Below are positions 2,602-56,943 of a stretch of DNA of 64,000 bases, piece after piece. Numbering within the stretch: position 1 is the stretch's first letter; every line of letters begins with the position of its first letter. The stretch comes from Pirellulales bacterium (GTDB lineage: Bacteria > Planctomycetota > Planctomycetia > Pirellulales > JAEUIK01), in contig JBFXAH010000007.1 of assembly GCA_050184475.1 (NCBI GenBank), positions 136,328-200,327 of the forward strand, in the 5' to 3' direction. The notes beneath the pieces are model-generated. The model did no database searches and was not told the origin of the DNA. It worked only from the letters and a program-made list of their open reading frames with translations. The position numbers were made by a program, and so were the translations under genes.

Positions 2602-3747
2602 TCACAAACGAAACAGCCATCCTCGTACATGTTTTGTCACTGTTAGCAGCCGCTCATCGCTGATTCGCTCGCGGTAGACGCTGGCCATGTCGTCGCGGGC
2701 ATGGCCCATAATGTGGTCAACCGCGACCTGGTCCTTGGCTTCGCCAGCGACCGTCTCGAAGGTGTGGCGAAGCGCGTAGAAGTTCAGGCCTGGGCGGTGC
2801 AGTCTGAGGGACTTCAGGAGCTTCGTCATTTCCTTGGTCACGGGGTTGTCACAAGTAACCTTCGCCCAGGGTTGCCCGTATTTAGTGACGAACACCAACC
2901 GATCGTAGCCAAGGTCCTTCGGCTTTGGTCGTTTCTTAGCTACAACCTGCAGGGCGGCAACTGTCTCCGGCCATAACGGACAACGCCGCTGAACCCCAGT
3001 TTTGGGACGAGGATAGTCGATCCAACCATTGGTCAGGCTGAGAGCAGATCTGGGCAAATTCGCGACGTCACTGTTGCCGAACCCGCAGTTTATCCCCAGC
3101 AGGATCATTGCCTTCAGCTGTGTTCCGGCGCCCTCAAGCATGGCACGAATCTCTTTAGCCTCGAACAGCCGGGGGCCTTTCTCGTTGCGAACTTTGCGTA
3201 GGGTTTTCTTGCTCGGTCGCTTAAACGTCGGACCGAATCGGACCGGTCGATCGATCAGTTCCACGTCGTAGGCGAACTTGAACACACTGCGCACGCGTTG
3301 GATTTCATTGCCGAGCGCCACAGGGCCCCGCGTTTTAGCGAGCATGACACGCAGCCTGTCGAAGTCTTCCGCACGGAGGTCCGGTACTTGACGTGTCCGG
3401 CCAAATGCATCGACGATGCGAGTACAGACAGCTATGTAGTCAGCAAAGGTCCGCTCGGTGATTTCGCCGGTGTCAGCCAGGGTGCGTTTGGCGGTCAAGA
3501 ATCGGTTGCACAAGTCTCGAACGGTTGCACCATCGGGCGAGGTCCGCGGCTGTCGTCCCGCGTATAGGTCGTCTCGCTGGTCCAGGTACAATTGGAGAGC
3601 TGCGTCGGGTTCCGTCCAGGGGCCAAAGTAAACGAGCTTTCCGCGAATCTTCTTGGCCCACCTTCTGGTCGCATGTGGAAATAGAGGAAAACCTGGGTAT
3701 GGCTTTGTGGGTCTTTTGACGCTAGGCCGGCAAGTCAATTTAGGCAT
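2602..3747 (-). CDS. tyrosine-type site-specific integrase
   Basis: 381 aa. The C-terminal catalytic region has LRHTFETVAG...HIMGHARDDMASVYRE (R..HxxR..Y signature). The N-terminal part looks like a SAM-like core-binding region. The gene ends 105 nt from a tRNA gene. Confidence 0.9.
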   Translation of the reverse strand: MPKLTCRPSVKRPTKPYPGFPLFPHATRRWAKKIRGKLVYFGPWTEPDAALQLYLDQRDDLYAGRQPRTSPDGATVRDLCNRFLTAKRTLADTGEITERTFADYIAVCTRIVDAFGRTRQVPDLRAEDFDRLRVMLAKTRGPVALGNEIQRVRSVFKFAYDVELIDRPVRFGPTFKRPSKKTLRKVRNEKGPRLFEAKEIRAMLEGAGTQLKAMILLGINCGFGNSDVANLPRSALSLTNGWIDYPRPKTGVQRRCPLWPETVAALQVVAKKRPKPKDLGYDRLVFVTKYGQPWAKVTCDNPVTKEMTKLLKSLRLHRPGLNFYALRHTFETVAGEAKDQVAVDHIMGHARDDMASVYRERISDERLLTVTKHVRGWLFRL

Positions 3748-3851
3748 GAGGTGGCTCGGGTCCGGACCATTGCAGGTGTCAGAATGGGTGTCATCCCGAT
3801 ATACTTGCCCTTGGTGACATAGTCAACAAGGCACTATGCACAAATATCTTA

Positions 3852-3924
<73 letters not shown>

Positions 3925-4013
3925 CATTTCCAGCACAATCGCTGAGCGTGCCGTGACCGGTGTGTCGCAAGTGAGGGCCTCGATGACCCTTAGAGAAAAG
4001 CTTGTCCGAAGAG

Positions 4014-4095
4014 CGGAGGGCACGGGAGTCGAACCCGCAACCGGTTGCCCGGCATCTGATTTCGAGTCAGACCGCTAGCCATTCGCTTACCCTCC
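4014..4095 (-). tRNA. tRNA-Ser (anticodon CGA), class II with long variable arm; D-arm atypical
   Basis: The minus strand reads GGAGGGT-AA-GCGAATGGCTAGCGG-TCTGA-CTCGAAA-TCAGA-TGCCGGGCAACCGGTT-GCGGG-TTCGACT-CCCGT-GCCCTCC-G. The acceptor, anticodon, variable (CCGG-GCAA-CCGG) and T arms are all good. The two D-stem strands (GCG/GCG) are not complementary, and position 8 is A. Confidence 0.7.
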
Positions 4096-4578
4096 GAGGG
4101 AGCACCGTGGCGCCGCAAACCGAGGGCAGTTCTCCGGGCGGCCGTCACGGCTGGCACTCCCAGAATTTACTGGGCCAGGCAGACTCGGACAAGCGAGCCT
4201 GCCGGCCGGTCAAACCGCCGCGGCGGAGTTTTTCGGGCCATTCGCCGGGCGGATGGCATTGGTCCGACGGGGCTCGATCGGCGCCGTGGGTGCGGCCGGC
4301 ACAGTCGGCAAGACACGCGCAAGGCATCGCCGGTTCGGCAGCAGCCCGAAGGTCAACGGCCGCACGCCCCGCATATTCGCTTCGCGTGGCGGCGAGCGAC
4401 GAGCGACACGTGGGGCTCGTAACGAAGGTGAACGGCGACACGAACCTGCCGGTTCTGGCGCGGCTCCCTCTTGTGTCGGGGCCAACAAAACTCCGCGATG
4501 CCGCGGGGGGAGACCGCCGATACCCCTCAGGTTCAAAAATCCTCTTCTCCAGCATTCAGTTCTGGGAGTCCCACACCG

Positions 4579-4890
4579 ATGACCAAAGAGATCTTCCGCG
4601 TCGTCACCCGCGGCGCCGACGGCAAACTTCGCGTCAAGGACTACCCCAAGCAAGACGCCGTCCAGAAGGTCCATACCCAGATTGGCATCGACGACTGCAG
4701 CACCGACTTGAGCCTGCGCGGGCTGCCGGTGTTTCGCGGCCTGATCGGTCCGATGCCCGAGGGCTCGAACGTCATACGCTACGAGTCGCCCGACGTCTTC
4801 GAGTCGCTGACGAAAGACTGGGTGGCGTCGAAGTCGGGTCGCAAGTCGCGTGGGCAATCGCGTCGGCTCGATCCGCCCGAAACCGTCTAA
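4579..4890 (+). CDS. hypothetical protein (about 103 aa)
   Basis: This is the inner ATG of ORF 4471..4890, with GGGAG about 11 nt upstream. The composition is balanced and protein-like (MTKEIFRVVTRGADGKLRVKDYPKQDAVQK...). I recognise no motif. Confidence 0.45.
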   Translation: MTKEIFRVVTRGADGKLRVKDYPKQDAVQKVHTQIGIDDCSTDLSLRGLPVFRGLIGPMPEGSNVIRYESPDVFESLTKDWVASKSGRKSRGQSRRLDPPETV

Positions 4891-4933
4891 GCGCCGGCTG
4901 GCGATCGCTCTGCCGGATCCGAATCAGCGACCG

Positions 4934-5887
4934 CTATTGCTGCTGTTGTTGCTGCTGATGTTGCTCGTCGGCCAGCGTGCCGTGTCGCGGGCGGAGCATC
5001 GAAATCGTCGGCACGTCGAGCGGTTGCAAATGCTCGTGCCAGGCGAGCGAGGGTAGCCGGGGCAATTCGCGGGTGGCCACGCGGACGCAGATCTTTTCGT
5101 CGGCTTCACCGCGATGCGTGCCCCGATTCGGCGGCACGTCGGTGTAATCGCGACCAATCGCTACGCGCACGAACCAGTCGGTCGCCTCGCAGCAATTCGT
5201 CGGGTCGTAGCCGAGCCAGCCCACGTCGGGCAGCCAGACCTCGCACCAGGCGTGGCTTTGCGAGTCTTTGTCGGGACGGTGGATGTAGCCGCTGACGTAG
5301 CGCGCCGGCACACCGTAAGAACGCAGCACGGCGATCATCAAGTGCGCGAAGTCCTGGCAGACGCCCTTGCCGGTCTCGAGCAAATGATCGATGGTCGACG
5401 TGCTGTCGGTGACGCCGCGCTCGTACTCGAACCGGTCGCGGAAGAACCGACCGACTTGTTCGATCCAGTCCCCCACGCGGCAGCCTTCGGGGGGCGCCAG
5501 TTGTCCGCGGATGGTCTGCAGGCGAGGCGAGTCGTGGACAGGGCCGCGGTAGGGCAGGAAGTCGAGCACGTCGCAGGTGTTCGTGGCGTCGGTCAGCGGG
5601 AAGGTCGCCGTGCTATCGGCCAGGCGGCGTTGCGGCAGACCGGTTTCGACCACGCTGGCCGCCAACACGCGAATCTGTTGATGCGGCGCCAACAGATTGA
5701 AGTGATGCACGCGGTTGCCGAAACCGTCGAGGTACCAAAACACGTTCGTCGGCTGGCTGACAGCCAAATGAAACGAATGGCAGCTTTGCTGCTCGTCGGT
5801 AACGGGCTGCATCCGCAGCTCGGCCAACCATTCGGAGACGGTTTCGGAGTATTCGAGCCGCGTCTCGTGTTGAATCTCGATGATCAT
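4934..5887 (-). CDS. transglutaminase-family protein (Bact_transglu_N + transglutaminase core)
   Basis: 317 aa. GKGVCQDFAHLMIAVLRSYGVPARYVSGY...SHAWCEVWLPDVGWLGYDPTN carries the Cys-His-Asp core. It is the last gene of the ATP-grasp/alpha-E/TGase triad. Confidence 0.85.
   Translation of the reverse strand: MIIEIQHETRLEYSETVSEWLAELRMQPVTDEQQSCHSFHLAVSQPTNVFWYLDGFGNRVHHFNLLAPHQQIRVLAASVVETGLPQRRLADSTATFPLTDATNTCDVLDFLPYRGPVHDSPRLQTIRGQLAPPEGCRVGDWIEQVGRFFRDRFEYERGVTDSTSTIDHLLETGKGVCQDFAHLMIAVLRSYGVPARYVSGYIHRPDKDSQSHAWCEVWLPDVGWLGYDPTNCCEATDWFVRVAIGRDYTDVPPNRGTHRGEADEKICVRVATRELPRLPSLAWHEHLQPLDVPTISMLRPRHGTLADEQHQQQQQQQ
4937..4963 (-). repeat. (CAR)n glutamine-codon run at the 3' end of the transglutaminase gene
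   Basis: The + strand reads TTGCTGCTGTTGTTGCTGCTG-ATG-TTG. This encodes ...EQHQQQQQQQ-stop, with seven consecutive Gln codons directly before the stop. Confidence 0.9.
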
Positions 5888-5923: not shown

Positions 5924-6874
5924 CTAGACGAGTGAGTACTGTTCTTGCACTGCCACCGTCGCGCGTGCGCAGCGTTGACCGGTTGTTTCGAGGAACGAGT
6001 GCAAGGCGTCATCGAGTACCTCGTGCGGCTCGGCGTATTCGAGATCGACGATGGCCCGCCCGAGAATGCGGCCCGCGCGGCCCCCCGGTTGCCCGGGATC
6101 GTCGCCTCCGATGGCCGCCAAATTCTCGGCCGCAGCCTTCAGACAAAACCGCACCGAGTAGGGAAAGTCGGGATTGAAGAGCAAGAATTCCAACACCCGT
6201 TCGGGCTCGACGCGGCTGATGTAGAGCCGCTGATAGGGATGATAGGCCTGGCAACATTCCAATACGCTGGCCCAGTGAAGGTTGGCCAGCGAGAGCTCCA
6301 TGGTGTCGGCCAGCGCCCGCAGTTGCCGGTAGCGGGTGTTGAGGATTCGCAGCGTCTTGTCGGCGCGTTCGAGGTACTTGGCGAGCTGAATGAACCGCCA
6401 GCTCTCGTCGTGGATCATCGTGGCGTCGCAAACGCCTTGAAACATCTGGTTGCCGGTTTGGACCGACTGATAGAGCTCGTGCGGCGAATCTTGCGCGCGG
6501 CGGCGAAACTCCGGGTCGGTCAACTGCCAATACAGCTTGTTCAGCTCGCGCCACATATCGGAGCTGATCGACCCGCGAATGCTGCGCGCGTTGTTGCGCG
6601 CGCGGTTGATGCAGGTCATGATGCTGGTGGGGTTCGCGCTCGAGAAGGTGAGCGCTTCGCTGACGGCGGCCGACAGCGGACCATCGGCTTCGCCCGGCGC
6701 CGGTTGCTGCAAGATCGCCAGCACGGCGGCCCATTGTAATTCTTGCGCGCCGGCCACGACGCCGTGCAGATCGAGCTCAAGGTGAAAACTGACTTCCAGC
6801 AGCCGCGCGACGTGGTCGGCCCGCTCGACGTAGCGGCTCATCCAGAACATGGCGTCGGCTACGCGACTGAGCAT
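5924..6874 (-). CDS. alpha-E domain protein (DUF403 family)
   Basis: 316 aa. The N-terminus MLSRVADAMFWMSRYVERADHVARLLEV is the hallmark start of alpha-E proteins. The gene sits between the ATP-grasp and transglutaminase genes. Confidence 0.85.
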   Translation of the reverse strand: MLSRVADAMFWMSRYVERADHVARLLEVSFHLELDLHGVVAGAQELQWAAVLAILQQPAPGEADGPLSAAVSEALTFSSANPTSIMTCINRARNNARSIRGSISSDMWRELNKLYWQLTDPEFRRRAQDSPHELYQSVQTGNQMFQGVCDATMIHDESWRFIQLAKYLERADKTLRILNTRYRQLRALADTMELSLANLHWASVLECCQAYHPYQRLYISRVEPERVLEFLLFNPDFPYSVRFCLKAAAENLAAIGGDDPGQPGGRAGRILGRAIVDLEYAEPHEVLDDALHSFLETTGQRCARATVAVQEQYSLV

Positions 6875-6952
6875 CGTATTGCGTACGCTTGATAGTTGAG
6901 GAGTGGAAACATCGAAGGCCGCCGGCCGACTTGATCGGCCGGGAATCTGCCG

Positions 6953-8455
<1,503 letters not shown>

Positions 8456-8753
8456 GGCGATAAGGCCGCCGGGCGAAATGACAGCGAATTGTAGGGGCAC
8501 GCAAAAAAGTTGCACGCCCGATTTCCGGCTTAATGTACAGGCAAGCGATGCGTTGACCAAAGGCACCCACACCGGCGGCGTAGCGACGGCGCGCGGCCCG
8601 ACAACCGGGACAAGTTGCAGATCAACACCGCTAAGTTAGGCTGGCGTTTGAACTAACGGGCGTTTCGCGGCGGCTGATCCCTCTCAGGCGACGGGGTTTC
8701 ACGCAACTGGTGTGCCACGCCGTCGGCATGAAAGCATGGGCTGGCAGCCGCGT

Positions 8754-33210: not shown

Positions 33211-34494
33211 CTAGGCGAACAACGAATCGATGACCCGCCCGCTGTTGGCGATTTTCATCGGTCGCCCATTCTTGCTGGTGAAGGTCTTGTCGAGCCCGAT
33301 GCCCAGCGCCTTGAGCACCGTGGCCATCAGGTCTTGCGCGGCGTAGCTTTCCCCGACGACTTCGGTGCCATCTTCATTGGTCTGGCCGACGGTGATCCCG
33401 CCGCGCAGGCCGCCACCTCCCAGCACCGCACTCCAACTGCGGGCCCAGTGATCGCGTCCCACGTTGGCGTTGATGCGAGGCGTGCGGCCGAACTCGCCCA
33501 TCCACAGCACCACGGTGTCGTCGAGCAGGCCGCGCTGGCCAAGATCCTCGACTAAAGCGCTCAGCCCTTGGTCGAGTTCTGGGAGCTTATTGGTTTCGAG
33601 CGTGCGGAAGACGTCGGAGTGATTGTCCCAGCCGCCGAAGTCGACCTCGACGCAGGCCACGCCCGCTTCGACCAGGCGGCGCGCCAGCAGGCAACTGCGG
33701 CCGAAATTCGAGGTGCCGTACCGGTCGCGCACCTCAGCCGGCTCGTCGTCGACCTTGAAGGCCCGCATCTGTTCGCTGGTCATCAGCTCCAGGGCTTTGC
33801 CGACGACATCCGAGTGTTCGCCGCTGGCCAACCCGCGACGTTCGGCGATAAAACTCCGCTCGATCTTGTCGAGCATCGCCATTCGACCGTTGAGCCGATC
33901 GGGCAGCGCCGGCTTGGAGTCGCGCACGTTGCCGTTAGCGCCCACGACCAGCGGGGCGTAAGCCAGCCCGAGAAAGCCCGGGCCCGCGCCGCTGCCCCCG
34001 ATGGTGACGAACGGCGGAATGGCGAGGTCGCCCAACTGCGGCGCCATTTCGTGGCCGATCACCGAGCCATAACTGGGATGCTCGATCTCGGGGATCGGCA
34101 CATAGCCGGTATGCAGGTAGTAACGCCCGCGATCGTGATCGGCCTCGCGAGTGCTCATCGAGCGCACGATCGACAAGCGGTCCATCACCTGGGCGACCTT
34201 CGGCAGATGTTCGCAAATCTGCATATCTCCCTTGGTGGCGATCGGCCGGAAGGGGCCGCCCGTGTTGGCGCCGGGCTTGAGGTCCCACAAGTCGATCGTG
34301 CTGGGACCGCCCCCCATCCAAAGAATGACGGCCGATTTATGGCGGCGACGGCCCTTGGCGACCTCGGCCGACAGCGCCGTCGTGAACGTCGAGGCGCTGG
34401 CCGCCAAAGCGGAACCGGCCGCCAGGTGAGACAGGAAATGCCGTCGCGACATACCGGCCGGCGCTGGCAGCAAGTGATTTGTCAACGCATTCAT
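33211..34494 (-). CDS. DUF1501 domain protein (sulfatase-fold), Tat signal
   Basis: SRRHFLSHLAAGSALAASA is a twin-arginine signal. WMGGGPSTIDLWDLKP and GEFGRTPRINANVGRDHW motifs are present. The gene lies 15 nt downstream of the DUF1549/1553 gene. Confidence 0.9.
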   Translation of the reverse strand: MNALTNHLLPAPAGMSRRHFLSHLAAGSALAASASTFTTALSAEVAKGRRRHKSAVILWMGGGPSTIDLWDLKPGANTGGPFRPIATKGDMQICEHLPKVAQVMDRLSIVRSMSTREADHDRGRYYLHTGYVPIPEIEHPSYGSVIGHEMAPQLGDLAIPPFVTIGGSGAGPGFLGLAYAPLVVGANGNVRDSKPALPDRLNGRMAMLDKIERSFIAERRGLASGEHSDVVGKALELMTSEQMRAFKVDDEPAEVRDRYGTSNFGRSCLLARRLVEAGVACVEVDFGGWDNHSDVFRTLETNKLPELDQGLSALVEDLGQRGLLDDTVVLWMGEFGRTPRINANVGRDHWARSWSAVLGGGGLRGGITVGQTNEDGTEVVGESYAAQDLMATVLKALGIGLDKTFTSKNGRPMKIANSGRVIDSLFA

Positions 34495-34509: not shown

Positions 34510-36375
34510 TTAGTGATTCAGGATGAACTCGTTGCTGTTTAGCAGTGCCCACCACACGTCTTCGAGAGCCTTAGCGGTGTCGCCGCCGTGGGCGATCCAC
34601 AGCCGCTGCGCCGCGGACAATTCGTCGCCTCCCGGCGAGCGACCTACGGCTGCCAGATAGAGCGTGCGCACTTTATCGCGATCGGAGCTGGCCGAGGTCG
34701 CCACTTCGTAGAGGAAGGTGCCGGGGCGGGCCATGGTGGCCCGGCGGATCAAGTCGCCATTCATCATCATCAGCACCTGCGGGATGGTGCCGTCGAAAGT
34801 GCTGGCTTCGTCGTTCTCATCGGTGCCGAAAGAGACGGCGAACTGGGCCAGCCACTCGCGGCGGTCGCGCTGGCGTTTTTCGGCATCTTCGGCCGCGGCC
34901 TTGGTCGCCACGAGCAACGACTCGTACAGTTCCTCGGGGCGCATCTGTCGCAGGTAAAAGCGGCTGAATCGCGGCGGCTCGCCGAGCGAGGGATCATCGT
35001 CGGCGTTCTTTGGCCCACTGCGGCTCGACAGTGCATAGGGCTCGCTGAGCACGATCCAGCGGGCCAACTGCTTGAGGTCGAAACCAGCGGCAACGAATTC
35101 CTGCGACAAGCGGTCAAGCAGATCGGCGTTGGTGATCGGGTTGTGCGGCCCCATGTCGTCGATCGGCTTGGTGAATCCATAGCCGAGAAAGTGCGCCCAC
35201 GTGCGATTGACGATCGCCCGCGGCAACTCCGCCGATTTGCTGATCAGGCGGGCCAGTTCGTCGCGGCGATTGACGTCGTCGACGTAGCCCGCTGGCTCGA
35301 TCGTGGTGCCGTCGAGGAAGGTGGGGCGCAGGATGGCGACGGCCGTGTTGTCGCGTCGCTCGAAGTAAATCTCCGCAGTCTGCGGATCGCCCGACTCGCC
35401 GGCGTAATCCTCGTCTTCGAGTCGAGCACTAATCACCTGCGTGCCGTCGAACGTGCGCAAAGCTCGCGCCTGACGGAAGAACGCGTTGAGCCCCCAGAAC
35501 TGCTGCTGTTTCCAGTTGTTGAACGGATGGTTGTGACACTGCGTGCACTGTACTTGCACGCCGAGGAAGATGCGGGCGGTTTTCGCCGTGGCCGAGGTGG
35601 CGTTGTCTTGCAGATTGTCGAGCAGGAAGTTGACGGCGCCGTTGAAGCGTTCGCTCCCGGGTTGATTGGCACCGTTGGCGCTCACCAGTTCAACGACGAT
35701 GCGGTCGTACGGGCGGTTCTCGAGAAAAGCGGCATTGAGATATTGCTCGAGCCCTTCGCGACTCACCAGCCCCTGCCGATTGCGACCGGCCGCCGCACGG
35801 CCAATCAATAGGTTGGTCCAACGCGTGGCCGCAGCTTGCGCGTATTCGTTGGCGTACGAGGTCGAGAGCAGTTCGTCGACGAGCCGGGCTCGTTTATCGG
35901 GCCGCTTGTCGGCGAGGTAGCGCTCGGTCTCGGTCAAAGTCGGAATTCGACCGACAAGATCGAGAAACAACCGTCGGCACCACTCGCCATCGCTGGCGTG
36001 TTCCGACGGAACGATCCCATCGGCCTGCCAGGCCTGGCCAAGTTGGGCATCGATGTACGACACGAGCTCGGCGGTCTTGGAGTCGACCCCGGCCAATTGG
36101 TCGGCGGTCGATTTGACTGCGTTTTGGGGAGTCCGCCGGTTCCGTCGATTCGTGGTTTTGGTGGTCGGCGGTGTCTCAGGACGAGATTTGGTCGCGGTTT
36201 GAGATGCGCCGAGTTCCGATGTTTCTGCCCCCTTTCGGCCTGCCGGCACCGGTTCGGCCCCAACAGAATTGCTCAATCCTGCTAGCAGTAGAGCCGCCCA
36301 CGTGGTTACCGAACCGGCGAGGGCCCTGATGGTCCGGCCAGCGGACATTTTTAGCATTCGCGGGATCACGGCCAT
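34510..36375 (-). CDS. DUF1549 + DUF1553 domain protein (PSD1-like)
   Basis: CRRLFLDLVGRIPTLTETERYLADKRPDKRARLVDELL matches DUF1549. VQCTQCHNHPFNNWKQQQFWGLNAFF matches DUF1553. A signal peptide is present. Confidence 0.9.
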   Translation of the reverse strand: MAVIPRMLKMSAGRTIRALAGSVTTWAALLLAGLSNSVGAEPVPAGRKGAETSELGASQTATKSRPETPPTTKTTNRRNRRTPQNAVKSTADQLAGVDSKTAELVSYIDAQLGQAWQADGIVPSEHASDGEWCRRLFLDLVGRIPTLTETERYLADKRPDKRARLVDELLSTSYANEYAQAAATRWTNLLIGRAAAGRNRQGLVSREGLEQYLNAAFLENRPYDRIVVELVSANGANQPGSERFNGAVNFLLDNLQDNATSATAKTARIFLGVQVQCTQCHNHPFNNWKQQQFWGLNAFFRQARALRTFDGTQVISARLEDEDYAGESGDPQTAEIYFERRDNTAVAILRPTFLDGTTIEPAGYVDDVNRRDELARLISKSAELPRAIVNRTWAHFLGYGFTKPIDDMGPHNPITNADLLDRLSQEFVAAGFDLKQLARWIVLSEPYALSSRSGPKNADDDPSLGEPPRFSRFYLRQMRPEELYESLLVATKAAAEDAEKRQRDRREWLAQFAVSFGTDENDEASTFDGTIPQVLMMMNGDLIRRATMARPGTFLYEVATSASSDRDKVRTLYLAAVGRSPGGDELSAAQRLWIAHGGDTAKALEDVWWALLNSNEFILNH

Positions 36376-36458
36376 AACGCACGCCCGCTTTAAGCGATTG
36401 GTAAATCGAGATTTAAGCCGCTAGCCACGATTCTAGGAGGGTGGCTATGGCAATTCCA

Positions 36459-36505
36459 GAAAAAAAATGACCCCGCGACAACCGCTTTGGGTTTGTCGCA
36501 GGGTC
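36459..36505 (-). terminator. rho-independent terminator (minus strand)
   Basis: The minus-strand RNA reads GACCCUGCGACAA-ACCCAAAGCGG-UUGUCGCGGGGUC, followed by A-UUUUUUUU-C. That is a 13-bp stem (one G-U), an 11-nt loop and an 8-U tract. Confidence 0.85.
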
Positions 36506-36975
36506 GCACTGTTCAATTCTGCTGCAACTGTTCAATTTTGCTACAGCAGCGAGGCACAGTTGGGTTGCCGAGCTCCTCTTCTCTGTACGATTTAGCCTCT
36601 GCAACCGGGTCGGGCTAGCCGACCAATTTTCGCGGGATACCAACACCGGGCCGCGTGTTCCAAGCGCCTTCCGGTGTTTGATATGCTCGCGAGTTACCTA
36701 CTCTCCGCCGGCCCCAACAGCTTAGTTGCCTCTTCGCTGTTTCAGCCTTCTCTGTTCCGACCCCGCTATAGCAACACTGCAATCTAAATCACCTCGAACT
36801 AAATCGCTGCGATGTAAAGCTCAGTGCTGCCAGTGCCTCGTTCCGTTCCGCCTCTTCAGGTCCCTGTCCCAGTTTCGAACATCACCTTGCGGTGATCGTC
36901 TGCTCTGGTCCGGTTGCCTCTGCCTCTTTTCTGCCCGGCCCGCTTTCTGTTCCGCAGAAGCGTGCCTCGTCGGTC
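36460..36975 (-). ncRNA. candidate sigma-54-dependent non-coding transcript, or a long attenuator-type leader
   Basis: The interval is bounded by an exact -24/-12 promoter and an intrinsic terminator. All three minus-strand frames are broken by stops. It holds several hairpins, including ATCACC-GCAA-GGTGAT at 36881-36896, and internal repeats. I recognise no match to a known RNA family. Confidence 0.4.
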
Positions 36976-36985
36976 CCTAAGCGTT

Positions 36986-37001
36986 AGCAAACGCTGTGCC
37001 A
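36986..37001 (-). promoter_or_regulatory. sigma-54 (RpoN) -24/-12 promoter
   Basis: The minus strand from 37001 to 36986 reads TGGCAC-AGCGT-TTGCT. This matches the consensus core TGGCAC-N5-TTGCW exactly. It is the only such site I found on either strand of the window. Confidence 0.65.
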
Positions 37002-37085
37002 CGGCTTAGGCAACGATCGAGTGCGAGCGCGAAAGCTTGCGAACTGTTTGCATGCTAGGCAATCGCGCGACTGCTGTACGAGCGC

Positions 37086-37115
37086 GTGTGAGTGGCAGCC
37101 GGCCGCCGCTCACAC
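37086..37115. promoter_or_regulatory. 11-bp imperfect inverted repeat GTGTGAGTGGC-N8-GCCGCTCACAC
   Basis: Read directly. The outer 7 bp are perfect (GTGTGAG/CTCACAC). It lies 40 nt after the ABC-exporter stop and about 100 bp upstream of the sigma-54 -24 element. It is either a U-tract-less terminator hairpin or an activator (bEBP) binding site. Confidence 0.35.
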
Positions 37116-37154
37116 GATTGGCGACCTGTCCGACTCGTGAGCGAAGCTGGCCTC

Positions 37155-39107
37155 TCAAGCCGACTCCCGGAACTCCAGTTGATGAAGCCGTCCGTAGAAC
37201 TCCGATCGCGCGAGGAGCTCGTCGTGACTGCCTTGCTCGACGATCCGTCCGCGGTCCATCACCAATACGCGTTGCGCCAAGGCGAGCGTCGCCGGGCGAT
37301 GCGTGATGATGATCGTGGTGCGATTGCGGACAAACCGCTCGAGCACCCGCTGAATGAGGTGCTCGCTTTCGGTATCGATCTGGCTGGTCGCCTCGTCGAG
37401 GATCAAGATCGCCGGATCGCGGAGGATCGCCCGCGCCAGTGCGATTCGTTGCCGTTGCCCACCCGAGAGCCGGCCCCCCTTGGGGCCGACGACGGTGTCG
37501 TAGCCGTCGGCCAACTGCTCTTCGATGAAGCGGTGGGCGTGGGCCTGGCGGGCGGCCTCGATGATCTGGGCACGCGACGCATGGGGCGAACCGTAGCGGA
37601 TGTTGTTGGCCACGGTGTCGTCGAACAGCAACGTCTCCTGCGTCACCAGCCCGAGTTGGCAGCGGAGGTCTTGCTGGCGGATTTCGCGAAGATCGTGCCC
37701 ATCGAGGCGGATCGTCCCCGCGGTGGGATCGAAGAACCGCGGAACCAGGCTCGCCAGCGTGGTCTTGCCACAGCCGTTGGGGCCGACGATGGCCACGGTC
37801 TGGCCATACGGTATGCGCAGGTCGATCCGGTCGAGTGCCAACTGCGCCCCACCGTAGCTGAACGACACGTTCTCGAACGTGATGTCGCGATGGTGCCGAC
37901 CGATGCGTCGCGGCTGAGCCGGATCGCGCACCTCGGGCTCACGATCGAGCAGTCCATACACCCGGTCGGCCGCCGCCGACGCCCGCTGCAGGCGATTGAA
38001 GATATCGGAGAGCTTGCGGGCCGGATCGCTCGTGCCGGCCAGCATGGCGTAGAACATCATCATGCTGACCAGATCGAGCGGCTGATTTGTCATGCGGATG
38101 CCCAGCAGGTGCGTCCGCTGCCCGATCACCAGGTAGGCGCCGGCCAGCATCGCCAGAAAGATCGTCAGCATGCCCATGCTCTCGGTCAGGGGGTGAGTCA
38201 GGGCGTCGTACCACGCGATGCGCATGCTGCGGGCATAAAAGCTCTTGCTGGCCAGGTGGAAGCGGCGGCGTTCGTGACGCTCCATGGTGAAGGCTTTGAC
38301 GACTTTGATCCCCTGCAACGACTCGTCGAGGATGCCGTAGATTTGCGACATCTCTTCCATGGCTTTCCGGTTGGCACGCTTGAGGTGCTTGGCCAGCCGG
38401 CGGATTAGGATCGCGGCCACGGGGGCGATGATCAGCGAGAACAGCAGCAGCCGCCAGCAGATGAACGCCGCGCCCGCCAGGCAGACGATCATTTTCAGCG
38501 GCTCGCGGACCGCCTTGCCGAATAGTTGGCTCATGCCGGCCGCCAGGCTCTCGAGGTCGGCCGTAAAGCGGGCCGTCAAATCGCTGGTGCCTTCGCGGGT
38601 GAAGGTTGCCAGGTCCATCCGCAACGTGCGACGGAAGAACTCTTTCCGCAAATCGAGAATGGCCGTTTGCGTGATGCGATCGACGAGCACCGACTGCGCG
38701 ACGAAGAAGACATTCTTGATGACGAGCCCTGCCAGTGCGACGGCCAGAATCAACACCAGCGTCGCGAATGGTCCAGCCGGCGTATATCGCTTGAGATAGG
38801 GTTCAGCGGCCTGATAGCGGGCCAGTTTGCGTTCTTCGCGAGCGACGTTTTGAGCGACAACCTGGTGATTGGCTTCCGGCGCGGCGAGCGCGGCCTGGGC
38901 CTCGGCCAGGAGCTTTTGATTGGCGGCGATCTTCTCATCGATCCAGTCGTGCAGCGACTGGCCCTTGAGGACGACGTCGACGATCGGATAGACCGTGCCG
39001 ATGTTGCCGCCCCAGAGGATGCCGACCATCAGGGCGCAAAACATCGAAGCGGCCAACAGCCAACGGCGACGAACGGCCAGCCGCAGCGCTCGAGCGTAGT
39101 TGTTCAT
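37155..39107 (-). CDS. ABC exporter, fused permease/ATPase (MsbA-like)
   Basis: I chose the inner ATG 39107 (MNNYARALRLAVRRRWLL...). The long upstream extension in the ORF track is Arg/Gly-rich junk. Six TM helices are followed by GPNGCGKTTLASL, LSGGQRQRIALARA and ILILDEATS. Confidence 0.9.
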   Translation of the reverse strand: MNNYARALRLAVRRRWLLAASMFCALMVGILWGGNIGTVYPIVDVVLKGQSLHDWIDEKIAANQKLLAEAQAALAAPEANHQVVAQNVAREERKLARYQAAEPYLKRYTPAGPFATLVLILAVALAGLVIKNVFFVAQSVLVDRITQTAILDLRKEFFRRTLRMDLATFTREGTSDLTARFTADLESLAAGMSQLFGKAVREPLKMIVCLAGAAFICWRLLLFSLIIAPVAAILIRRLAKHLKRANRKAMEEMSQIYGILDESLQGIKVVKAFTMERHERRRFHLASKSFYARSMRIAWYDALTHPLTESMGMLTIFLAMLAGAYLVIGQRTHLLGIRMTNQPLDLVSMMMFYAMLAGTSDPARKLSDIFNRLQRASAAADRVYGLLDREPEVRDPAQPRRIGRHHRDITFENVSFSYGGAQLALDRIDLRIPYGQTVAIVGPNGCGKTTLASLVPRFFDPTAGTIRLDGHDLREIRQQDLRCQLGLVTQETLLFDDTVANNIRYGSPHASRAQIIEAARQAHAHRFIEEQLADGYDTVVGPKGGRLSGGQRQRIALARAILRDPAILILDEATSQIDTESEHLIQRVLERFVRNRTTIIITHRPATLALAQRVLVMDRGRIVEQGSHDELLARSEFYGRLHQLEFRESA

Positions 39108-39289
39108 CCGTGAACCCGCCTGGGGCGCAAGAGTGATTGGGCCCGCGAGCACTAGCGCATCGCGCGCCAGCGTCTGGACCTGTGCCGCGCGAACCCTCCT
39201 GGAACACCCGCGCCAGCGTGGGGAGAGTTTTAGCACACCGCGGCGCGATCGACCAAGGGCAGGACAAGCTAGCAGATGGAAAGCGACTG

Positions 39290-41155
39290 CTAGCTGATCG
39301 CCACGACCGGCACCGGACGAGACAGTTCCGCCAGCGCGCTCTCGAAATCGCGGAAGGCCGCCGATTCGGTCAGCTCCGCTCCACGACGCAGATCGACGAG
39401 CACCGGCCCGAGCAACTCTCGCTCCAGCCAGCCGGCCAGCCACTCGGCGCGCTCGCGGGCGTAATGTTCCTGCAGACGGGTGAACAACCGCGTGGCCGCG
39501 CGGCGCACACCGCTGGTCGTGGCATCGACGAGCGCTTCGCCGCCGGTCGTCACCCCGCCGGAGACCGCCGCCTCGGTCGCCAATTCCATGGCCGAATGCG
39601 TGGCCGCGTGCACGGCCGCCCCGTGCACCAGCCCGGCCGCCAACACCCACCCGCTAACGGCCAGCGAAACCGTGATCGCCGGCCGAGCGATCGCCGTCAC
39701 CTGGTCGATCGAACGCAGCGCGGCGATCGCCCTGGGGTTCTCGCGACCCCAGCGATCGAGCTCGCTGCGCAAGAAGTTGCGGTAATCATCGTCGACCGGC
39801 GCGAGCTGTGCATGACTGGCTTCGACGCGCGTCAGCAGACGTGCCCGCGCGTCGCCCTGCAACAACTCGACCAGGCGAGGGCGAAGCGTGTCGCTACCGA
39901 CCGCGGAGAGCCGCTTGAGCTCGTCGAGCAGCCGCTCGATGGCGGTCAGAATGGCGGCCCGCTCGCGCTGCCGGAAGGCATCGAGCGGATCGACGGCTGG
40001 CCCGTTGATCGCTTGCCAGGCAGTGCGGACCGGCCAGGTCACGCCGCGCCCCACCTGGCGATACACCGAATGAATCGATCGCGACCAGGGGCTGCGGTGA
40101 AGATTCCACCAGTCGCGAATCTCCTGCACGAGCAATTCGGCCGGCAAGCTGGGCCAATCGACGCGGGCCATGTCGGTGGCCGACAGTGCCGCGGCCGCTT
40201 CGTTGAACTGCCGCGAAGTGTCGCGAACCGCCGCCAGGTAGGTGGGCGCCCCACTACGAGGATCGGTCACGCGGGCCAACGCACCGCGGAGCGTGCGCAG
40301 CTTGATCCAGTCGAACTTGAGGTTTGCCAGGTCGTTGCGCAGCGAGGCGGCGGCACCCGGTTCGCCTGAGCCGTCGGGCCCGATCTCGTAAAACGGCAAG
40401 CGCCGCTCGCGCGAGGCGACGCGATCGTAAGGGACGATGTACACGAGTTCGGGGGCCGCTCCTGTTTCGTCGGCGAAGGTTGCCAGCCACTGCGGCCAAT
40501 ACTGGCGGTCTTCCGCCAGGTCGCATTGATTGAAGAGAACGACGACCGGCTTGTCGGCCTGCACCGCTTTGCGGAAAAACTGTTTCACGGCCGCGTCGTT
40601 GTACTTCTGCTGGGTGAGCACGGCGACCAGCACATCGGCCACGTGCCGCACGCCGTCGGCGCGGCGCCAGTTGACTTGGGCGTCGGAATCGATGTCCGGA
40701 GTGTCGAGCACCAAGAGGCGCTCGGGGACGTCGTGCCCCACGCGCCAGAAGAGCCAGTCGGTGTCGCTCTCGATCTGCGGATCGGTGGCGGCATGCCAGG
40801 CTCGGAGCGTGAAACCCTCGAACAGCCGGGTGAGCAGTTGCTCGTCGTCGAATCCCGGCGGCACGAGACAGACCGGGTGCTTGGTGCCGGCAGCCAACGG
40901 ACTGACACCGCTGGCTTCTTCGCCGACCAGGTGGTTGAAGACCACGGACTTGCCGATGTTGGTGCCGCCCACCACTGCGACAACCAGGTACGGCGTGCCT
41001 TCGATTTGCGGGCGCAGCTTGTGTTCGAGCAACTCATACCACTCGGCGCCGCTGGGGGGCGGAACCCCCACGGCGTCGGCCTGCGGGCGCAGCGCCGTCA
41101 GGGCTGCCTGCAATCGGGCGATGGCTGCGGCCCACTGGGCAAACTCGTTGGACAT
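39290..41155 (-). CDS. dynamin-like / MMR_HSR1-type GTPase with C-terminal hydrophobic hairpin
   Basis: I chose the inner ATG 41155 (MSNEFAQWAAAI...). G1 is VGGTNIGKS, G3 is LDTPDID and G4 is NQCD. The C-terminal half is long and helical, with AITVSLAVSGWVLAAGLVHGAAVHA. Confidence 0.7.
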   Translation of the reverse strand: MSNEFAQWAAAIARLQAALTALRPQADAVGVPPPSGAEWYELLEHKLRPQIEGTPYLVVAVVGGTNIGKSVVFNHLVGEEASGVSPLAAGTKHPVCLVPPGFDDEQLLTRLFEGFTLRAWHAATDPQIESDTDWLFWRVGHDVPERLLVLDTPDIDSDAQVNWRRADGVRHVADVLVAVLTQQKYNDAAVKQFFRKAVQADKPVVVLFNQCDLAEDRQYWPQWLATFADETGAAPELVYIVPYDRVASRERRLPFYEIGPDGSGEPGAAASLRNDLANLKFDWIKLRTLRGALARVTDPRSGAPTYLAAVRDTSRQFNEAAAALSATDMARVDWPSLPAELLVQEIRDWWNLHRSPWSRSIHSVYRQVGRGVTWPVRTAWQAINGPAVDPLDAFRQRERAAILTAIERLLDELKRLSAVGSDTLRPRLVELLQGDARARLLTRVEASHAQLAPVDDDYRNFLRSELDRWGRENPRAIAALRSIDQVTAIARPAITVSLAVSGWVLAAGLVHGAAVHAATHSAMELATEAAVSGGVTTGGEALVDATTSGVRRAATRLFTRLQEHYARERAEWLAGWLERELLGPVLVDLRRGAELTESAAFRDFESALAELSRPVPVVAIS

Positions 41156-53299: not shown

Positions 53300-55675
53300 T
53301 TGGGTATCTGGCCACGGAGGCCAGCCTTCGCAGGTCGAACCGCTCGGGATGCGTCGCTCCCCGGGGTGTCAAAATTGCAACCTGTTTTCTTGACGTTGGG
53401 GAGTTCTCGCTTGGCAGTCTCGAAAAGTCGCAAACTCTCGGCAGAGCAGGCGAAAACCGCGCACAGCAACGGCCACGCAGCCAATGGCGCGGTCGTCAAA
53501 CGCGGCGCGAAATCGGATAACGGGTCCGCGACTGACAGCACCGATGTCGGTGACGAGGGCGCCGAGAACGCCGATGAAGCAGGCGCCGACGACCGCGCGC
53601 ATGCCGAATCCAACGGCGCGGGTCGCAAGTCGCGCCGTCGCGCCACCGCCCAGTCGATGGCCGCCAGCCAGCGCGATATCTCGGTCAGCGAATTCTTCGC
53701 CAAGAATCGCCACTTGTTGGGCTTCGACAATCCGCGCAAGGCGCTACTGACCACGGTCAAGGAAGCAGTCGACAACGCGCTCGACGCTTGCGAAGAGGCC
53801 GGCATTCTTCCCGAAGTCTGGGTCCATATTCGCCAGACCGGCGACACTCGTTATCAGGTCGGCGTGCAAGACAACGGGCCAGGCATTCTCAAGCAGCAGA
53901 TTCCCAACGTCTTCGGCAAGCTGCTCTACGGGTCAAAGTTTCACCGTCTGCGAATGAGCCGCGGTCAGCAAGGGATCGGCATCAGCGCCGCCGGCATGTA
54001 CGGCCTGCTGACCACGGGCAAACCGGTCAAGATCATGTCGAAGGTTTCGCCCAAGAAGCCGGCGCACTACTACGAAATCGCGATTAACACGAAGGTCAAC
54101 CGCCCCGAGATTCTCAACGGCAAAGGAGACGGGGTCGACGTGCCGCCGGGAGCAGCCGGCCAGGCAGCGATGGAAAAGCACGCCATCGAATGGGTCGAAA
54201 CCGATCACGGCACGCGCGTCACCATCGAGCTCGAAGCTCGCTACCAGCGCGGCCGCGGCAGCGTCGACGATTATCTGGCGCAAACCTGCATCGCCAACCC
54301 GCACATCAAGCTGCACTACATCGATCCGGAAGGGACCACCACCGAGTTCGAGCGTTCGACCGAGGAACTGCCCCCCGAAGCCAAAGAGATCATGCCGCAC
54401 CCGTACGGCATCGAGCTCGGGCAATTGGTGACGATGCTCAAAGACTCGAAGCCGATGTCGCTGTCGCAGTTCTTGAGCGGTTCGTTCTCGCGCGTCAGCT
54501 CAAGCACCGCCAAGCGCATCTGTGAGACAGCCAAGCTCAGCACGCGGGCGAACGTTCACCGCGTCGGTCGCCACGAAGCCGAATCTCTCTACAAAGCCCT
54601 GCAAGAGACGCGCATCCCGCCGCCGTCGACCGATTGCGTGGTGCCGATCGGTGAGCAGCGGCTGCTCAAGGGGCTGCATCACGTGGTGCCGGGCGACTTC
54701 TACGTGGCGGTAACTCGCCCGCCGGCCGTGTATCGCGGCAATCCGTTCGTGATCGAGGCGGCCTTGGCCTATGGCGGGGCGCCTTCGGCCGCCCGCGTGT
54801 CACTCGAGCAACTGACCGACTTTCTGCAAGAGAGCGACGCCCGCACGTTGCGGCAGTTTCTGGCCACGACGTTCCAGGGAGTGGGCATGGAGGGGGCCAA
54901 CAAGATTGTCAAAGAGTCGGGCCTCGGCACCCGGCAGACCCCCAGCAAGCTCAAGCCCAAGGAAATCCTGAAACTGCACGAGGCCCTGCAAAGCGTCAAT
55001 CTCGACGAAGGGCAAACGATGAACGTGCTGCGATACGCCAACCGCGTGCCGCTGCAGTTTCAACAGGGGGCTTGCGCCATCACGCAAACCGTGGTGGGCA
55101 CGAGTTGGCGCGCCTACGGGTTGACGCAGTCGCGCAATTCGTTGCCCAGTGGGCCGGTCACCATCATGGTACACATGGCCAGCGTGTGGGTGCCGTTCAC
55201 CAGCGAATCGAAGGAAGCGATCGCCGGCTATCCCGAAATCCAGCGCGAGCTGCGGCTGGCGTTGCAGGCGATCGGTCGCAAGCTCGGGCTGTACATGCGT
55301 CGCAAATTGAAAGTGCGCGACGCCGGCGCCCGCCGCAACACGTTCCTCAAATACCTGAACGAGATCGCCGAGGCGGTGACCGTTATCAAGGACTATCCCG
55401 AAAGCCGCACCAAGCAGCTCTACGAAAAGCTGTGCGCGGTGGCCAAAGTCAAGACGCTGCACGCCGATCTGCGGGTCGACGAGAAAGGCAACTTCGTCGA
55501 AGAAAGCGGTGACGAGGCTCAGGACTTTGGCGACAACGTGCTGATCGTCGATCGGGACGCGACCGACAGCGCGTCGGCTGCTCCCGAAGGTGCCGATCAA
55601 GAGACTGCCGCGACCGCGCCGCGAGGGTCGAAATCCAAAGCCAAACGGTCGACGGCCAAACGCCGCGGCAAGTAA
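53300..55675 (+). CDS. top6B: DNA topoisomerase VI subunit B (GHKL ATPase)
   Basis: ISVSEFFAKNRHLLGFDNPRKALLTTVKEAVDNALDACEE (N-box), VQDNGPGI (G1) and SRGQQGIGISAA (G2) are present, followed by an H2TH region. The transducer has VYRGNPFVIEAALAYGG...LRYANRVPLQFQQGACAIT. The start is ambiguous: 53300, TTG 53411 (GGGGAG RBS) or ATG 53657. Confidence 0.88.
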   Translation: MGIWPRRPAFAGRTARDASLPGVSKLQPVFLTLGSSRLAVSKSRKLSAEQAKTAHSNGHAANGAVVKRGAKSDNGSATDSTDVGDEGAENADEAGADDRAHAESNGAGRKSRRRATAQSMAASQRDISVSEFFAKNRHLLGFDNPRKALLTTVKEAVDNALDACEEAGILPEVWVHIRQTGDTRYQVGVQDNGPGILKQQIPNVFGKLLYGSKFHRLRMSRGQQGIGISAAGMYGLLTTGKPVKIMSKVSPKKPAHYYEIAINTKVNRPEILNGKGDGVDVPPGAAGQAAMEKHAIEWVETDHGTRVTIELEARYQRGRGSVDDYLAQTCIANPHIKLHYIDPEGTTTEFERSTEELPPEAKEIMPHPYGIELGQLVTMLKDSKPMSLSQFLSGSFSRVSSSTAKRICETAKLSTRANVHRVGRHEAESLYKALQETRIPPPSTDCVVPIGEQRLLKGLHHVVPGDFYVAVTRPPAVYRGNPFVIEAALAYGGAPSAARVSLEQLTDFLQESDARTLRQFLATTFQGVGMEGANKIVKESGLGTRQTPSKLKPKEILKLHEALQSVNLDEGQTMNVLRYANRVPLQFQQGACAITQTVVGTSWRAYGLTQSRNSLPSGPVTIMVHMASVWVPFTSESKEAIAGYPEIQRELRLALQAIGRKLGLYMRRKLKVRDAGARRNTFLKYLNEIAEAVTVIKDYPESRTKQLYEKLCAVAKVKTLHADLRVDEKGNFVEESGDEAQDFGDNVLIVDRDATDSASAAPEGADQETAATAPRGSKSKAKRSTAKRRGK

Positions 55676-55779
55676 CAGGCGATCGACGCCTGGGTGCCAC
55701 TGCTGGCTTGTCCAGCAGTGCCTATGGGGCGACTGTCCCCGTCAACTGGATGCTGTTTTCACTAACACTTGGTTACCAC

Positions 55780-56943
55780 ATGGCCAAAAAAGCCCGCGGC
55801 AAATCGACTTCGAGCAGCTCCGGCACCGCGACCGCGCGCCCCAAGCTCAACGAACGCGACAAGAAAACCATGGGGGAGCTGCACGGCCTGGCCGGCGGCG
55901 TGGAAACGGCCGCCGACAAGAAACGCGACCCCTACCTCGATATCCCCAGCCGCACCTTGTCGAACGTCCGGTTCAACAAGGCCAAGCGGTTCATCGAGAT
56001 GGGCAAGAACACCACGCGCCGGCAGCTCTTCAATCTCTCGCAGGCCAAGAGCTACATGCAAACGCTGCTTGTCGCCAAAGGCTCGAAGCAGCTCATCACC
56101 GAAGGCAAGACCACCAGCTTGCGAGGTTTGTTCTACTTGCTCAAGCACACGATCGAGGGGACCAAGGAAGACACCTTCGAAGAGCAGACCGAGTGCGACT
56201 CGATCATCGAGGATGTCGAGGTGACGCTCAACGCCCTGCGAGAAGAACTGCACTTGTTCGCCAAGGAAGCTGGCAGCATCGTCGGGCCAATCACGCTGGT
56301 CGACACCGGCGACGAAATCGATTGCTCGCGGATGGGCTCGGGCGGCTATAGCATCCCGTCGATCGTCGAGCCCGACGTAATCCAGTTCAAGAACAACCGC
56401 GCCAAGTTCGTGCTGCACGTCGAAAAGGGGACGGTCTGGCGGCGGTTCAACGAAGACAAATTCTGGCAGAAGCACAACTGCATTCTCACCCACGGCGGCG
56501 GGCAGCCCCCGCGCGGCGTGCGGCGGCTGTTGCATCGCTTTCATTACGAGCTCGACTTGCCGGTCTACTGCCTGTTGGATAACGACCCCTGGGGATACTA
56601 CATCTACAGCGTGATCAAACAGGGCTCGATCAACCTGGCCTTCGAGTCGAAGCGGATGGCCGTGCCAGGGGCCAAGTACTTGGGGCTGCGGTCGATCGAC
56701 TTCGCCCGTTGCGAGCTGTCGCCGGCGGTGCAAATCCGGCTGAACGACACCGACATCAAGCGGGCCAAACAGATCGCCGCCTACCCCTGGTTCGCCGACA
56801 AGAAGCCGTGGCAGCGAGAGATCGAGCAGATGCTCAAGAACGCCTTCAAGCTCGAGGTCGAGTCGCTGATCTCCAAGAACATCAGCTACGTGACCGAGAC
56901 GTACGTGCCCGAGCGGCTCAAGCAGCAAGACTGGCTCGACTAG
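55780..56943 (+). CDS. top6A: DNA topoisomerase VI subunit A (Spo11-like)
   Basis: I chose the inner ATG 55780 (MAKKARGKS...). SLRGLFYLLKH carries the catalytic-Tyr motif. The Toprim Glu is in FVLHVEKGTVW and the DxD is in YCLLDNDPWGYYIY. The protein is about 387 aa. Confidence 0.88.
   Translation: MAKKARGKSTSSSSGTATARPKLNERDKKTMGELHGLAGGVETAADKKRDPYLDIPSRTLSNVRFNKAKRFIEMGKNTTRRQLFNLSQAKSYMQTLLVAKGSKQLITEGKTTSLRGLFYLLKHTIEGTKEDTFEEQTECDSIIEDVEVTLNALREELHLFAKEAGSIVGPITLVDTGDEIDCSRMGSGGYSIPSIVEPDVIQFKNNRAKFVLHVEKGTVWRRFNEDKFWQKHNCILTHGGGQPPRGVRRLLHRFHYELDLPVYCLLDNDPWGYYIYSVIKQGSINLAFESKRMAVPGAKYLGLRSIDFARCELSPAVQIRLNDTDIKRAKQIAAYPWFADKKPWQREIEQMLKNAFKLEVESLISKNISYVTETYVPERLKQQDWLD

Follow-up and report, generated by a model that had tools for sequence, protein, structure and literature searches.

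Does the gap between an ATP-binding cassette (ABC) exporter gene and a DUF1549/DUF1553 gene, in the 64-kilobase (kb) stretch of Pirellulales DNA analysed here (the window), hold an RNA gene of its own or a leader of the operon that follows it? The gap, positions 36376..37154 read on the minus strand, lies between the exporter stop at 37155 and the DUF1549/DUF1553 start at 36375; the ends of the open reading frames (ORFs) and Pfam matches to both flanking genes agree with the arrangement given in an initial annotation of this DNA, which had proposed a novel sigma-54-dependent RNA here. In our analysis the gap is probably the gene for a stand-alone, sigma-54-inducible RNA of about 515 nucleotides (nt) that would act as a multi-site sponge (anti-sRNA) for a small RNA (sRNA). 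Direct support comes from a conserved promoter motif, a terminator, the absence of coding potential, conserved helices and enriched complementarity to the sRNA; transcription itself, the direction of regulation between the two RNAs and the physiological signal behind it are what we infer.

The gap stands out in composition, with a G+C fraction of 0.54-0.57 vs 0.62-0.67 in the flanks and a minus strand rich in G and A, as the description of an AT-richer, purine-rich gap had it. The features that delimit the predicted RNA are as follows.

36986..37001, minus strand: sigma-54 -24/-12 core TGGCAC-AGCGT-TTGCT (TGGCACAGCGTTTGCT), exact consensus, conserved
36460..36975, minus strand: predicted non-coding RNA, about 515 nt long, bounded by the sigma-54 start and the last U of the U-tract
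36460..36505, minus strand: intrinsic terminator, 13-base-pair (bp) GC-rich stem plus U8, free energy (dG) -20.9 kcal/mol
36627..36693, minus strand: closed central domain of the minimum-free-energy fold, outer helix UCGCG..AUAUC / GGUAU..CGCGA
36509..36541, minus strand: block D, two direct repeats GCA(A/G)AAUUGAACAG, near-identical in the closest relative

Relatives of the locus were gathered by a one-genome-per-species scan with the DUF1549 protein, which gave 80 loci (L001-L080), mostly from Pirellulales metagenome-assembled genomes, and 81 with the window. The closest, L001 (77% identity in the DUF1549 protein), can be aligned with the window over most of the gap, and the 3' 170 nt, including the terminator, are almost identical in the two.

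The sigma-54 core had been reported at exactly 37001..36986 on the minus strand and was recovered there, with GG at -24 and GC at -12 placed 10 nt apart; its uniqueness within the 64 kb likewise held for the exact pattern TGGCAC-N5-TTGCW. An exact match to that pattern is expected by chance 0.12 times per 64-kb window and occurred at least once in 12 of 100 shuffles, so that the site alone is only mildly unlikely, and its weight as a putative promoter comes from its conservation. GGCAC-N5-TTGCT is kept in L001 amid diverged flanks, and TGGC[A/G/C][C/T]-N5-TTGC, with its GG-N10-GC core, is found at the same position in 40/40 near-full-length members of the RNA family described below, as well as in five metagenome members (L092, L127, L156, L166 and L193). 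Taking the usual 12-nt distance to the core, transcription would start near 36975. Upstream of the promoter no conserved motif was detected, the family profile beginning about 10 nt before the GG. An inverted repeat flanking the promoter (36970-36989 / 36997-37016) was set aside, not being conserved in L001. Elsewhere in the window, a near-consensus core with one mismatch, TGGCACACCAGTTGCG, lies at 8717..8702 (minus strand), intergenic and correctly oriented, about 130 nt upstream of an ORF at 8570..6777 (597 amino acids, without a Pfam match).

At the other end of the predicted RNA, the proposed 13-bp hairpin followed by a U-tract is indeed present, its arms GACCCUGCGACAA...UUGUCGCGGGGUC at 36505..36469 and its U8 at 36467..36460, with a dG of about -21 kcal/mol. 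It ends 85 nt before the DUF1549 gene start and is kept in L001, where changes in the loop and inner stem preserve the pairing. The region 36978..36455 as a whole folds at -214.7 kcal/mol vs -173.4 +/- 6.5 kcal/mol for dinucleotide shuffles (z = -6.3). Two hairpins singled out in the initial annotation, 36896..36881 and 36678..36642, both exist; the former is not conserved in L001, and the latter, with the loop CUUGGAACACGCG, is enclosed by the outer helix of the central domain. In L001 the inner part of that outer helix changes from AUAUC/GGUAU to GUUGAU/AUCAAC, on both sides, with an identical loop, as judged by eye from the two sequences. The family counterpart of this outer helix is helix P1, described below.

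Coding potential was found to be absent. The gap contains the two short ORFs that had been listed, one of 55 amino acids (TTG start, 36782..36615) and one of 77 amino acids (36646..36413, minus strand), neither with a Pfam match; the start codon of the second is GTG and not TTG as had been stated. No conserved ORF was present in the homologous loci, where peptide matches among 42 loci span six frames and switch frame, and the indels between the window and L001 have lengths that are not multiples of three; a small protein was rejected on these grounds. Searched against Rfam 15, the window gave no match at the gathering score or at E up to 10, CsrB, RsmY/Z and CrcZ included, and searches with mainstream members of the long-RNA family, the sRNA-bearing contig L128 and the sRNA loci returned nothing beyond tRNAs and sub-threshold matches attributable to chance. 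A known RNA family was accordingly rejected.

The gap belongs to a recurrent element. More than 30 further loci carry, at the equivalent position, a 19-nt motif of the window (the B1 motif, site S3 below), iterated nhmmer searches begun from L043 recovered an element of 300-400 nt in 57 of the 81 loci, and window positions 36767..36509 match the resulting family profile with E = 1.3e-3. Named carriers include Blastopirellula marina DSM 3645 (L052) and Anatilimnocola sp. NA78 (L051; NZ_CP187419.1, with the element near 815-825 kb). The ABC exporter stands upstream in only 32 of the 80 loci whereas DUF1501 follows in 74, and the element therefore travels with the DUF1549-DUF1501 operon. In the family alignment (A2) the sigma-54 promoter is followed by a variable 5' hairpin, the purine-rich blocks B1 (CGGGGCCGGAACAGAGAAGAG) and B2 (YGGGGCCGG-N5-AGAAGAGGC, conserved family-wide), a P1/P2 domain, hairpin C and block D; variants of the B sites are of the types GGGGCCGAAAC.. 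and GGGGCCGGUAC.., helix P1 (GCGGAAAC/GUUUCCGC) encloses P2, and the P2 loop carries GGAACAGCGAGGC. Hairpin C (GGCGAG...CUCGCC, -21 to -39 kcal/mol) is followed by a T-rich tract in about half of 40 relatives and is terminator-like there; the window, L001 and L012 have instead a canonical terminator 34-39 nt after block D.

A covariance model comprising P1, P2 and hairpin C (R1) finds the element in about 41 loci. In the alignment fitted to this model, 84% of cells are paired, shuffles reach 68% and sliding the partners leaves no more than 48%, and 29/36 pairs show double-sided changes (9/10 in P1 and 11/16 in hairpin C, with P2 weak); an independent MAFFT/RNAalifold run gave 13 compensatory pairs, mostly in hairpin C. 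The model matches neither the window nor L001, because both are without hairpin C; they also possess an additional 5' module, about 190 nt long and with more B-like motifs, and retain block D, the central loop and a helix resembling P1. Since the nhmmer match (E = 1e-3), promoter, B1/B2 sites, central domain and block D are shared, both can be counted as members, and the window RNA is best described as a divergent, expanded member of a putative structured RNA family beside the DUF1549/DUF1553-DUF1501 operon in Pirellulales. The proposal of a novel sigma-54-dependent RNA is thus supported by the conserved family with its 40 promoters and its helices, and by the empty Rfam search.

Block D repeats elsewhere in the family are of the type UUGCAAAAYGAUACAC, or GCAAAAYGAUACAC / GCARAAUUGAACAG (L002-L079), and often form TGT-N11-ACA units with A/T-rich centres. 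RNAalifold found no consensus RNA fold for them, some members forming perfect 7-bp hairpins and most being mismatched, and their interpretation as RNA hairpins was dropped for this reason, DNA sites being possible. Block D lies downstream of hairpin C in those members in which C is terminator-like; it may represent enhancer DNA sites of the activator, placed downstream of a short gene.

The putative partner came to light through the repeated purine-rich motif of the window, GGGGYCGGAACAGAGAAGAGGC: reverse-complemented, this motif gives the conserved region of an sRNA of about 70 nt. When metagenome contigs were scanned for the exact 18-mer GGGGYCGGAACAGAGAAG, at least 120 matching contigs were obtained (L081-L200), only a handful of which (the five metagenome members named above) carry the sigma-54 element, while about 100 carry on the opposite strand an sRNA gene with a promoter, a short 5' region, the complement, a terminator hairpin and a U-run. 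The layout is often a TTGACA-N17-TAnnnT promoter, 10-20 variable nt, GGCCUCUUCUCUGUUCCGGCCCC, the hairpin and U5-9; the signature of the gene is CTTCTCTGTTCCGRCCCC followed by hairpin and T-run, and the conserved single-stranded region reads GGCCUCUUCUCUGUUCCGG(CCCC), the 5' arm of the GC-rich terminator hairpin starting at the CCCC. At least 98 distinct sRNA sequences were found, and the terminator stem covaries. Two examples with promoter, conserved region and terminator are given here.

L128:5406-5481, minus strand: sRNA gene
L081:4637-4711, minus strand: sRNA gene

With a promoter, a terminator and conservation, these loci have what would be expected of a genuine sRNA gene, and they are organised as a base-pairing sRNA some 70 nt long would be, its predicted targeting region lying near the 5' end. 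Planctomycete marker genes (DUF1559, DUF1501, DUF1549) are present on several of the contigs, and the Topo VI-B protein of L128 is 67% identical to that of the window, L128 being a fairly close relative. One contig, L089, was considered as an sRNA and sponge pair and rejected, its two motif copies belonging to an sRNA gene that is duplicated, in inverted orientation, at the two ends of the contig.

The predicted RNA of the window contains five sites for this sRNA, listed in 5' to 3' order with their pairing energies.

36921..36942, minus strand: S1 (CGGGCCGGGCAGAAAAGAGGCA), -36.5 kcal/mol with the 23-nt region of the sRNA; in the 5' module of the window and L001
36849..36873, minus strand: S2 (ACUGGGACAGGGACCUGAAGAGGCG), medium, -28.9 kcal/mol (23-nt region) and -28.3 kcal/mol (19-nt accessible region)
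36743..36765, minus strand: S3, the B1 motif (CGGGGUCGGAACAGAGAAGGCUG), -39.7 kcal/mol
36695..36716, minus strand: S4, the B2 motif (UGGGGCCGGCGGAGAGUAGGUA), bipartite with a central internal loop, -33.0 kcal/mol
36574..36598, minus strand: S5 (..ACAGAGAAGAGGA), -25.4 and -23.0 kcal/mol, in the loop of hairpin 36606..36563

S3 is the sole match in the window to the 21-mer pattern at up to 3 mismatches, with 0 expected, and S5 is identical in sequence in L001, where its enclosing stem GGUUGC/GCAACC is kept. Against the 23-nt region, S1, S3 and S4 beat the best site found in 60 dinucleotide shuffles (-30.9 kcal/mol); against the 19-nt region outside the terminator stem, three window sites reach -24 kcal/mol or better, a count attained in 0/200 shuffles. 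Across 42 family RNAs, sites at -27 kcal/mol or better average 2.7 per RNA vs 0.17 in coding controls of equal length, and 41/42 have at least two, with four in the window and six in L001. Complementarity to the single-stranded, predicted targeting region of the sRNA hence exceeds chance, as a sponge would require, and the excess of GAGGC in the window RNA (below) agrees with it. Shorter variants were seen in L193 and L085, each with the sigma-54 core and a single perfect sRNA site but with other genes downstream, a DUF1501 paralogue in the former and a GMC oxidoreductase in the latter; the module with the sRNA site may serve in more than one context.

According to the mechanism that we favour, an activator would switch the sigma-54 promoter on, and the long RNA would be made and end at the intrinsic terminator. 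Each molecule would pair, via its single-stranded purine-rich motifs, with several sRNA molecules and thereby sequester or destabilise them, and the loss of sRNA would relieve the sRNA's own targets, presumed to be purine-rich ribosome-binding regions.

The initial annotation had left the choice between a stand-alone RNA and an attenuator leader, and of these the former is favoured and a pure leader disfavoured. The genes concerned, and a candidate promoter between them, are listed here.

39650..37155, minus strand: ABC exporter (Pfam), 5' neighbour of the gap
36375..34510, minus strand: DUF1549/DUF1553 protein (Pfam), 3' neighbour of the gap
34494..33211, minus strand: DUF1501 protein, next gene after DUF1549/DUF1553
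36430..36459, minus strand: candidate sigma-70-type operon promoter CTGGAATT-N16-TAGAATCG

That the gap might act as an extended 5' leader, or as an attenuator, for the DUF1549-DUF1501 operon, with sigma-54 transcripts entering the operon only where the terminator is overcome and sRNA binding controlling read-through or mRNA stability, is suggested by the position of the element, which in nearly all carriers immediately precedes the operon in the same orientation, has that operon and not the ABC exporter as its conserved neighbour, and in the window has its terminator just 85 nt before the ATG. We nevertheless regard this as unlikely. A strong terminator precedes the DUF1549 gene in both the window and L001, and the sRNA sites lie 200-570 nt upstream of the ATG, before that very stable structure. 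A promoter-like signal follows the terminator: the boxes CTGGAATT and TAGAATCG are identical in the window and L001 across a diverged 16-nt spacer, and TAGAATCG recurs just upstream of the DUF1549 gene in L003, L010 and L069, so that the operon may have a promoter of its own. A leader would always stand on the same strand directly upstream, and in L073 (3196-3480, minus strand) the whole element, with promoter, sites, hairpin C and block D, points away from the DUF1549 gene while still adjacent to it, the promoter being about 400 bp from the ATG. Alternative antiterminator pairing was seen neither by eye nor in consensus folds, no dedicated search for it having been run. Finally, the DUF1549 translation-initiation region was tried as an sRNA target and is unconvincing (-17.4 vs -16.7 kcal/mol in controls, p = 0.04). 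In 15 loci the stretch that separates the RNA element from the DUF1549 start codon contains a GAGTAC(TTTT) motif, some 100-150 nt ahead of the ATG (L007, L015, L017, L021, L025, L027, L035, L041, L042, L051, L052, L069, L074, L076 and L077).

Three further readings were weighed. The long RNA could itself be the effector, for example by protein binding through its P1/P2/hairpin-C core, with the sRNA switching it off or triggering its decay; a conserved covarying core beyond the sRNA sites and a constitutive-looking, sigma-70-type sRNA promoter would fit this, and complementarity is symmetrical as to regulator and target. The window and L001, however, multiply their sites (4 and 6) in the absence of hairpin C, which suggests that the sites are the selected feature, and several sites per molecule suit titration better than on/off control of one RNA, which makes an effector role rather doubtful. 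A sponge for a protein such as Hfq or CsrA, of the CrcZ/CsrB type, would agree with the sigma-54 promoter, with an RNA 0.3-0.6 kb long and with the repeated motifs, GAGGC occurring 7 times in the window RNA vs 1.5 expected (0/2000 shuffles reach 7), and csrA has been reported as sigma-54-linked in a Pirellula species (PMC12316311). Yet the motif complements one specific sRNA over 18-23 nt, a length needless for a protein site, and GGA is not conserved in B2 and is absent in many members, contrary to what a protein-binding motif would show; a CsrA/Hfq/TRAP-type motif was set aside once the purine-rich motif proved to be the sRNA complement, and a protein sponge appears very unlikely. Least probable of all, to the point of being scarcely credible, is a feature of the DNA only, with repeats serving as activator or transcription-factor sites and the RNA incidental. 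The TGT-N11-ACA inverted repeats of block D, without a consensus RNA fold, and the lack of a conserved motif upstream of the promoter would agree with it, but there is covariation in helices P1 and C, G-U wobble pairs included, the B motifs show strand asymmetry and correspond to an RNA of the complementary strand, and promoter and terminator are correctly placed and conserved.

Several observations weigh against a sponge transcribed from sigma-54. A pure trans-acting sponge leaves the tight linkage to the DUF1549 operon unexplained, and the complementarity is silent on which RNA regulates which. No sRNA gene was found in the window or in the 80 Pirellulales loci, and the co-occurrence of both RNAs in one cell would follow from phylum-level evidence and one close relative (L128). 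Eighteen of the 23 conserved sRNA nt were fixed by the search pattern, the flanking GGCCU alone being independent evidence of conservation, and the alignment used for covariation had the structure of the R1 model imposed on it. The window's sites are more degenerate than those of the family, and with the 19-nt region its best single site (-28.3 kcal/mol) falls within the shuffle range (-29.3 kcal/mol). As to the promoter, none of the 37 window ORFs scanned with Pfam matched rpoN, and no enhancer-binding protein (Sigma54_activat) was detected by Pfam within the 64-kb window. Rhodopirellula baltica has an rpoN gene, RB6491 (PMC2754498).

Possible natural targets of the sRNA are suggested by two phage head genes among the metagenome contigs. 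In L095 a capsid gene (3965-5140, minus strand; Phage_capsid_4, E = 6e-13) has, some 26 nt ahead of its ATG, 18 nt that are exactly complementary to the sRNA, and in L171 a head-decoration gene (2473-3261, plus strand; HDPD / PHROG head decoration) has an exact 18-nt site overlapping the Shine-Dalgarno sequence. Because both sites fall in ribosome-binding regions, the sRNA could be imagined to silence (pro)phage head genes across the phylum, with the sigma-54 RNA as an inducible switch of host or prophage that lifts the silencing, an idea that we consider distinctly improbable; if true, it would amount to an RNA-only circuit from an enhancer-binding-protein signal to (pro)phage late-gene translation in Planctomycetota. 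A scan of viral contigs gave four copies of the sRNA gene and no further phage target sites. The four are IMG/VR contigs (L201-L204, two of them identical) in which the sRNA gene itself, and no target site, is present; proviruses with flanking host DNA are one possible source, and use of the sRNA gene as an integration hotspot is another possibility.

Bacterial sRNA sponges are known in other settings, among them the chbBC intercistronic decoy of ChiX, 3'ETS-leuZ and AgvB. SroC, acting against GcvB (PMC4474525), and a recently reported PinT antagonist (PMC12721325) are likewise sponges or anti-sRNAs. Their conserved feature is the complement of the targeting region of an sRNA, and their expression is conditional, as is proposed here. 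The window RNA has no sequence homology to bacterial sponges and differs from them in being a predicted primary sigma-54 transcript and not a by-product of an mRNA or tRNA, in carrying 2-6 sites with up to 18-23 nt of complementarity, in having a conserved covarying core, and in being planctomycete. CrcZ and CrcY of Pseudomonas, RNAs about 400 nt long and dependent on sigma-54/CbrB, sequester Hfq/Crc. Together with CsrB/RsmZ they resemble the window RNA in a length of several hundred nt, repeated single-stranded motifs, a terminator and titration logic, and CrcZ/CrcY also in the sigma-54 promoter; however, CrcZ, CsrB and RsmZ titrate proteins via short A-rich or GGA motifs, whereas the window motif is a long sRNA complement, and neither homology nor an Rfam match connects the window RNA to CrcZ/CrcY or CsrB/RsmZ.

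Qrr1-5 and GlmY are RNA genes with -24/-12 promoters that need an enhancer-binding protein. NrsZ is a further sigma-54-dependent sRNA (PMC4253122). All of these are, like the window RNA, non-coding genes with a -24/-12 promoter, but they are short (about 100-230 nt) and act on mRNAs (GlmY as a protein decoy), in contrast to a long RNA of 0.3-0.6 kb with a predicted sRNA partner. Eukaryotic microRNA sponges, such as competing endogenous RNAs and circular RNAs, likewise have many sites per long RNA, some centrally mismatched as in B2; they are unrelated in origin and machinery, and the likeness is one of logic only. The multi-site design is nevertheless nearer to them than to the known bacterial sponges with one or two sites.

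Our literature search found no characterised base-pairing sRNA or sRNA sponge for Planctomycetota. The present analysis offers a concrete, testable pair, a CU-rich sRNA of about 70 nt represented in at least 98 distinct environmental contigs and a structured RNA family of 0.3-0.6 kb with 2-6 long sites each and a sigma-54 promoter of the strictly activator-dependent type, and two RNA families outside Rfam 15 would join the catalogue. If the sponge reading is true, an enhancer-binding-protein signal would be turned into a post-transcriptional response via sRNA titration. There is now also a first regulatory handle on a DUF1549/DUF1553-DUF1501 operon, one among many whose function is unknown.

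A few other features of the window may be mentioned. Positions 37085-37116, 40 nt past the ABC-exporter stop, form a perfect 16-bp GC-rich palindromic hairpin without a U-tract, which may be the 3' end structure of the exporter transcript. Both subunits of topoisomerase VI, unusual for bacteria, are encoded at 53300-56943 on the plus strand (B: Topo-VIb_trans + HATPase_c; A: TP6A_N + Toprim). A phage-type integrase (2602..3747, minus strand) adjoins tRNA genes at 3852-3924 (plus strand) and 4014-4095 (minus strand, weak, 34 bits), and an integrated element may have its boundary in the region 2602-4095. Taken at full ORF length, the ABC exporter (start 39650) shares 360 nt with the GTPase-like gene upstream of it (stop 39290); the Pfam domains of the exporter begin at residue 289, and its true start is probably further downstream than 39650.

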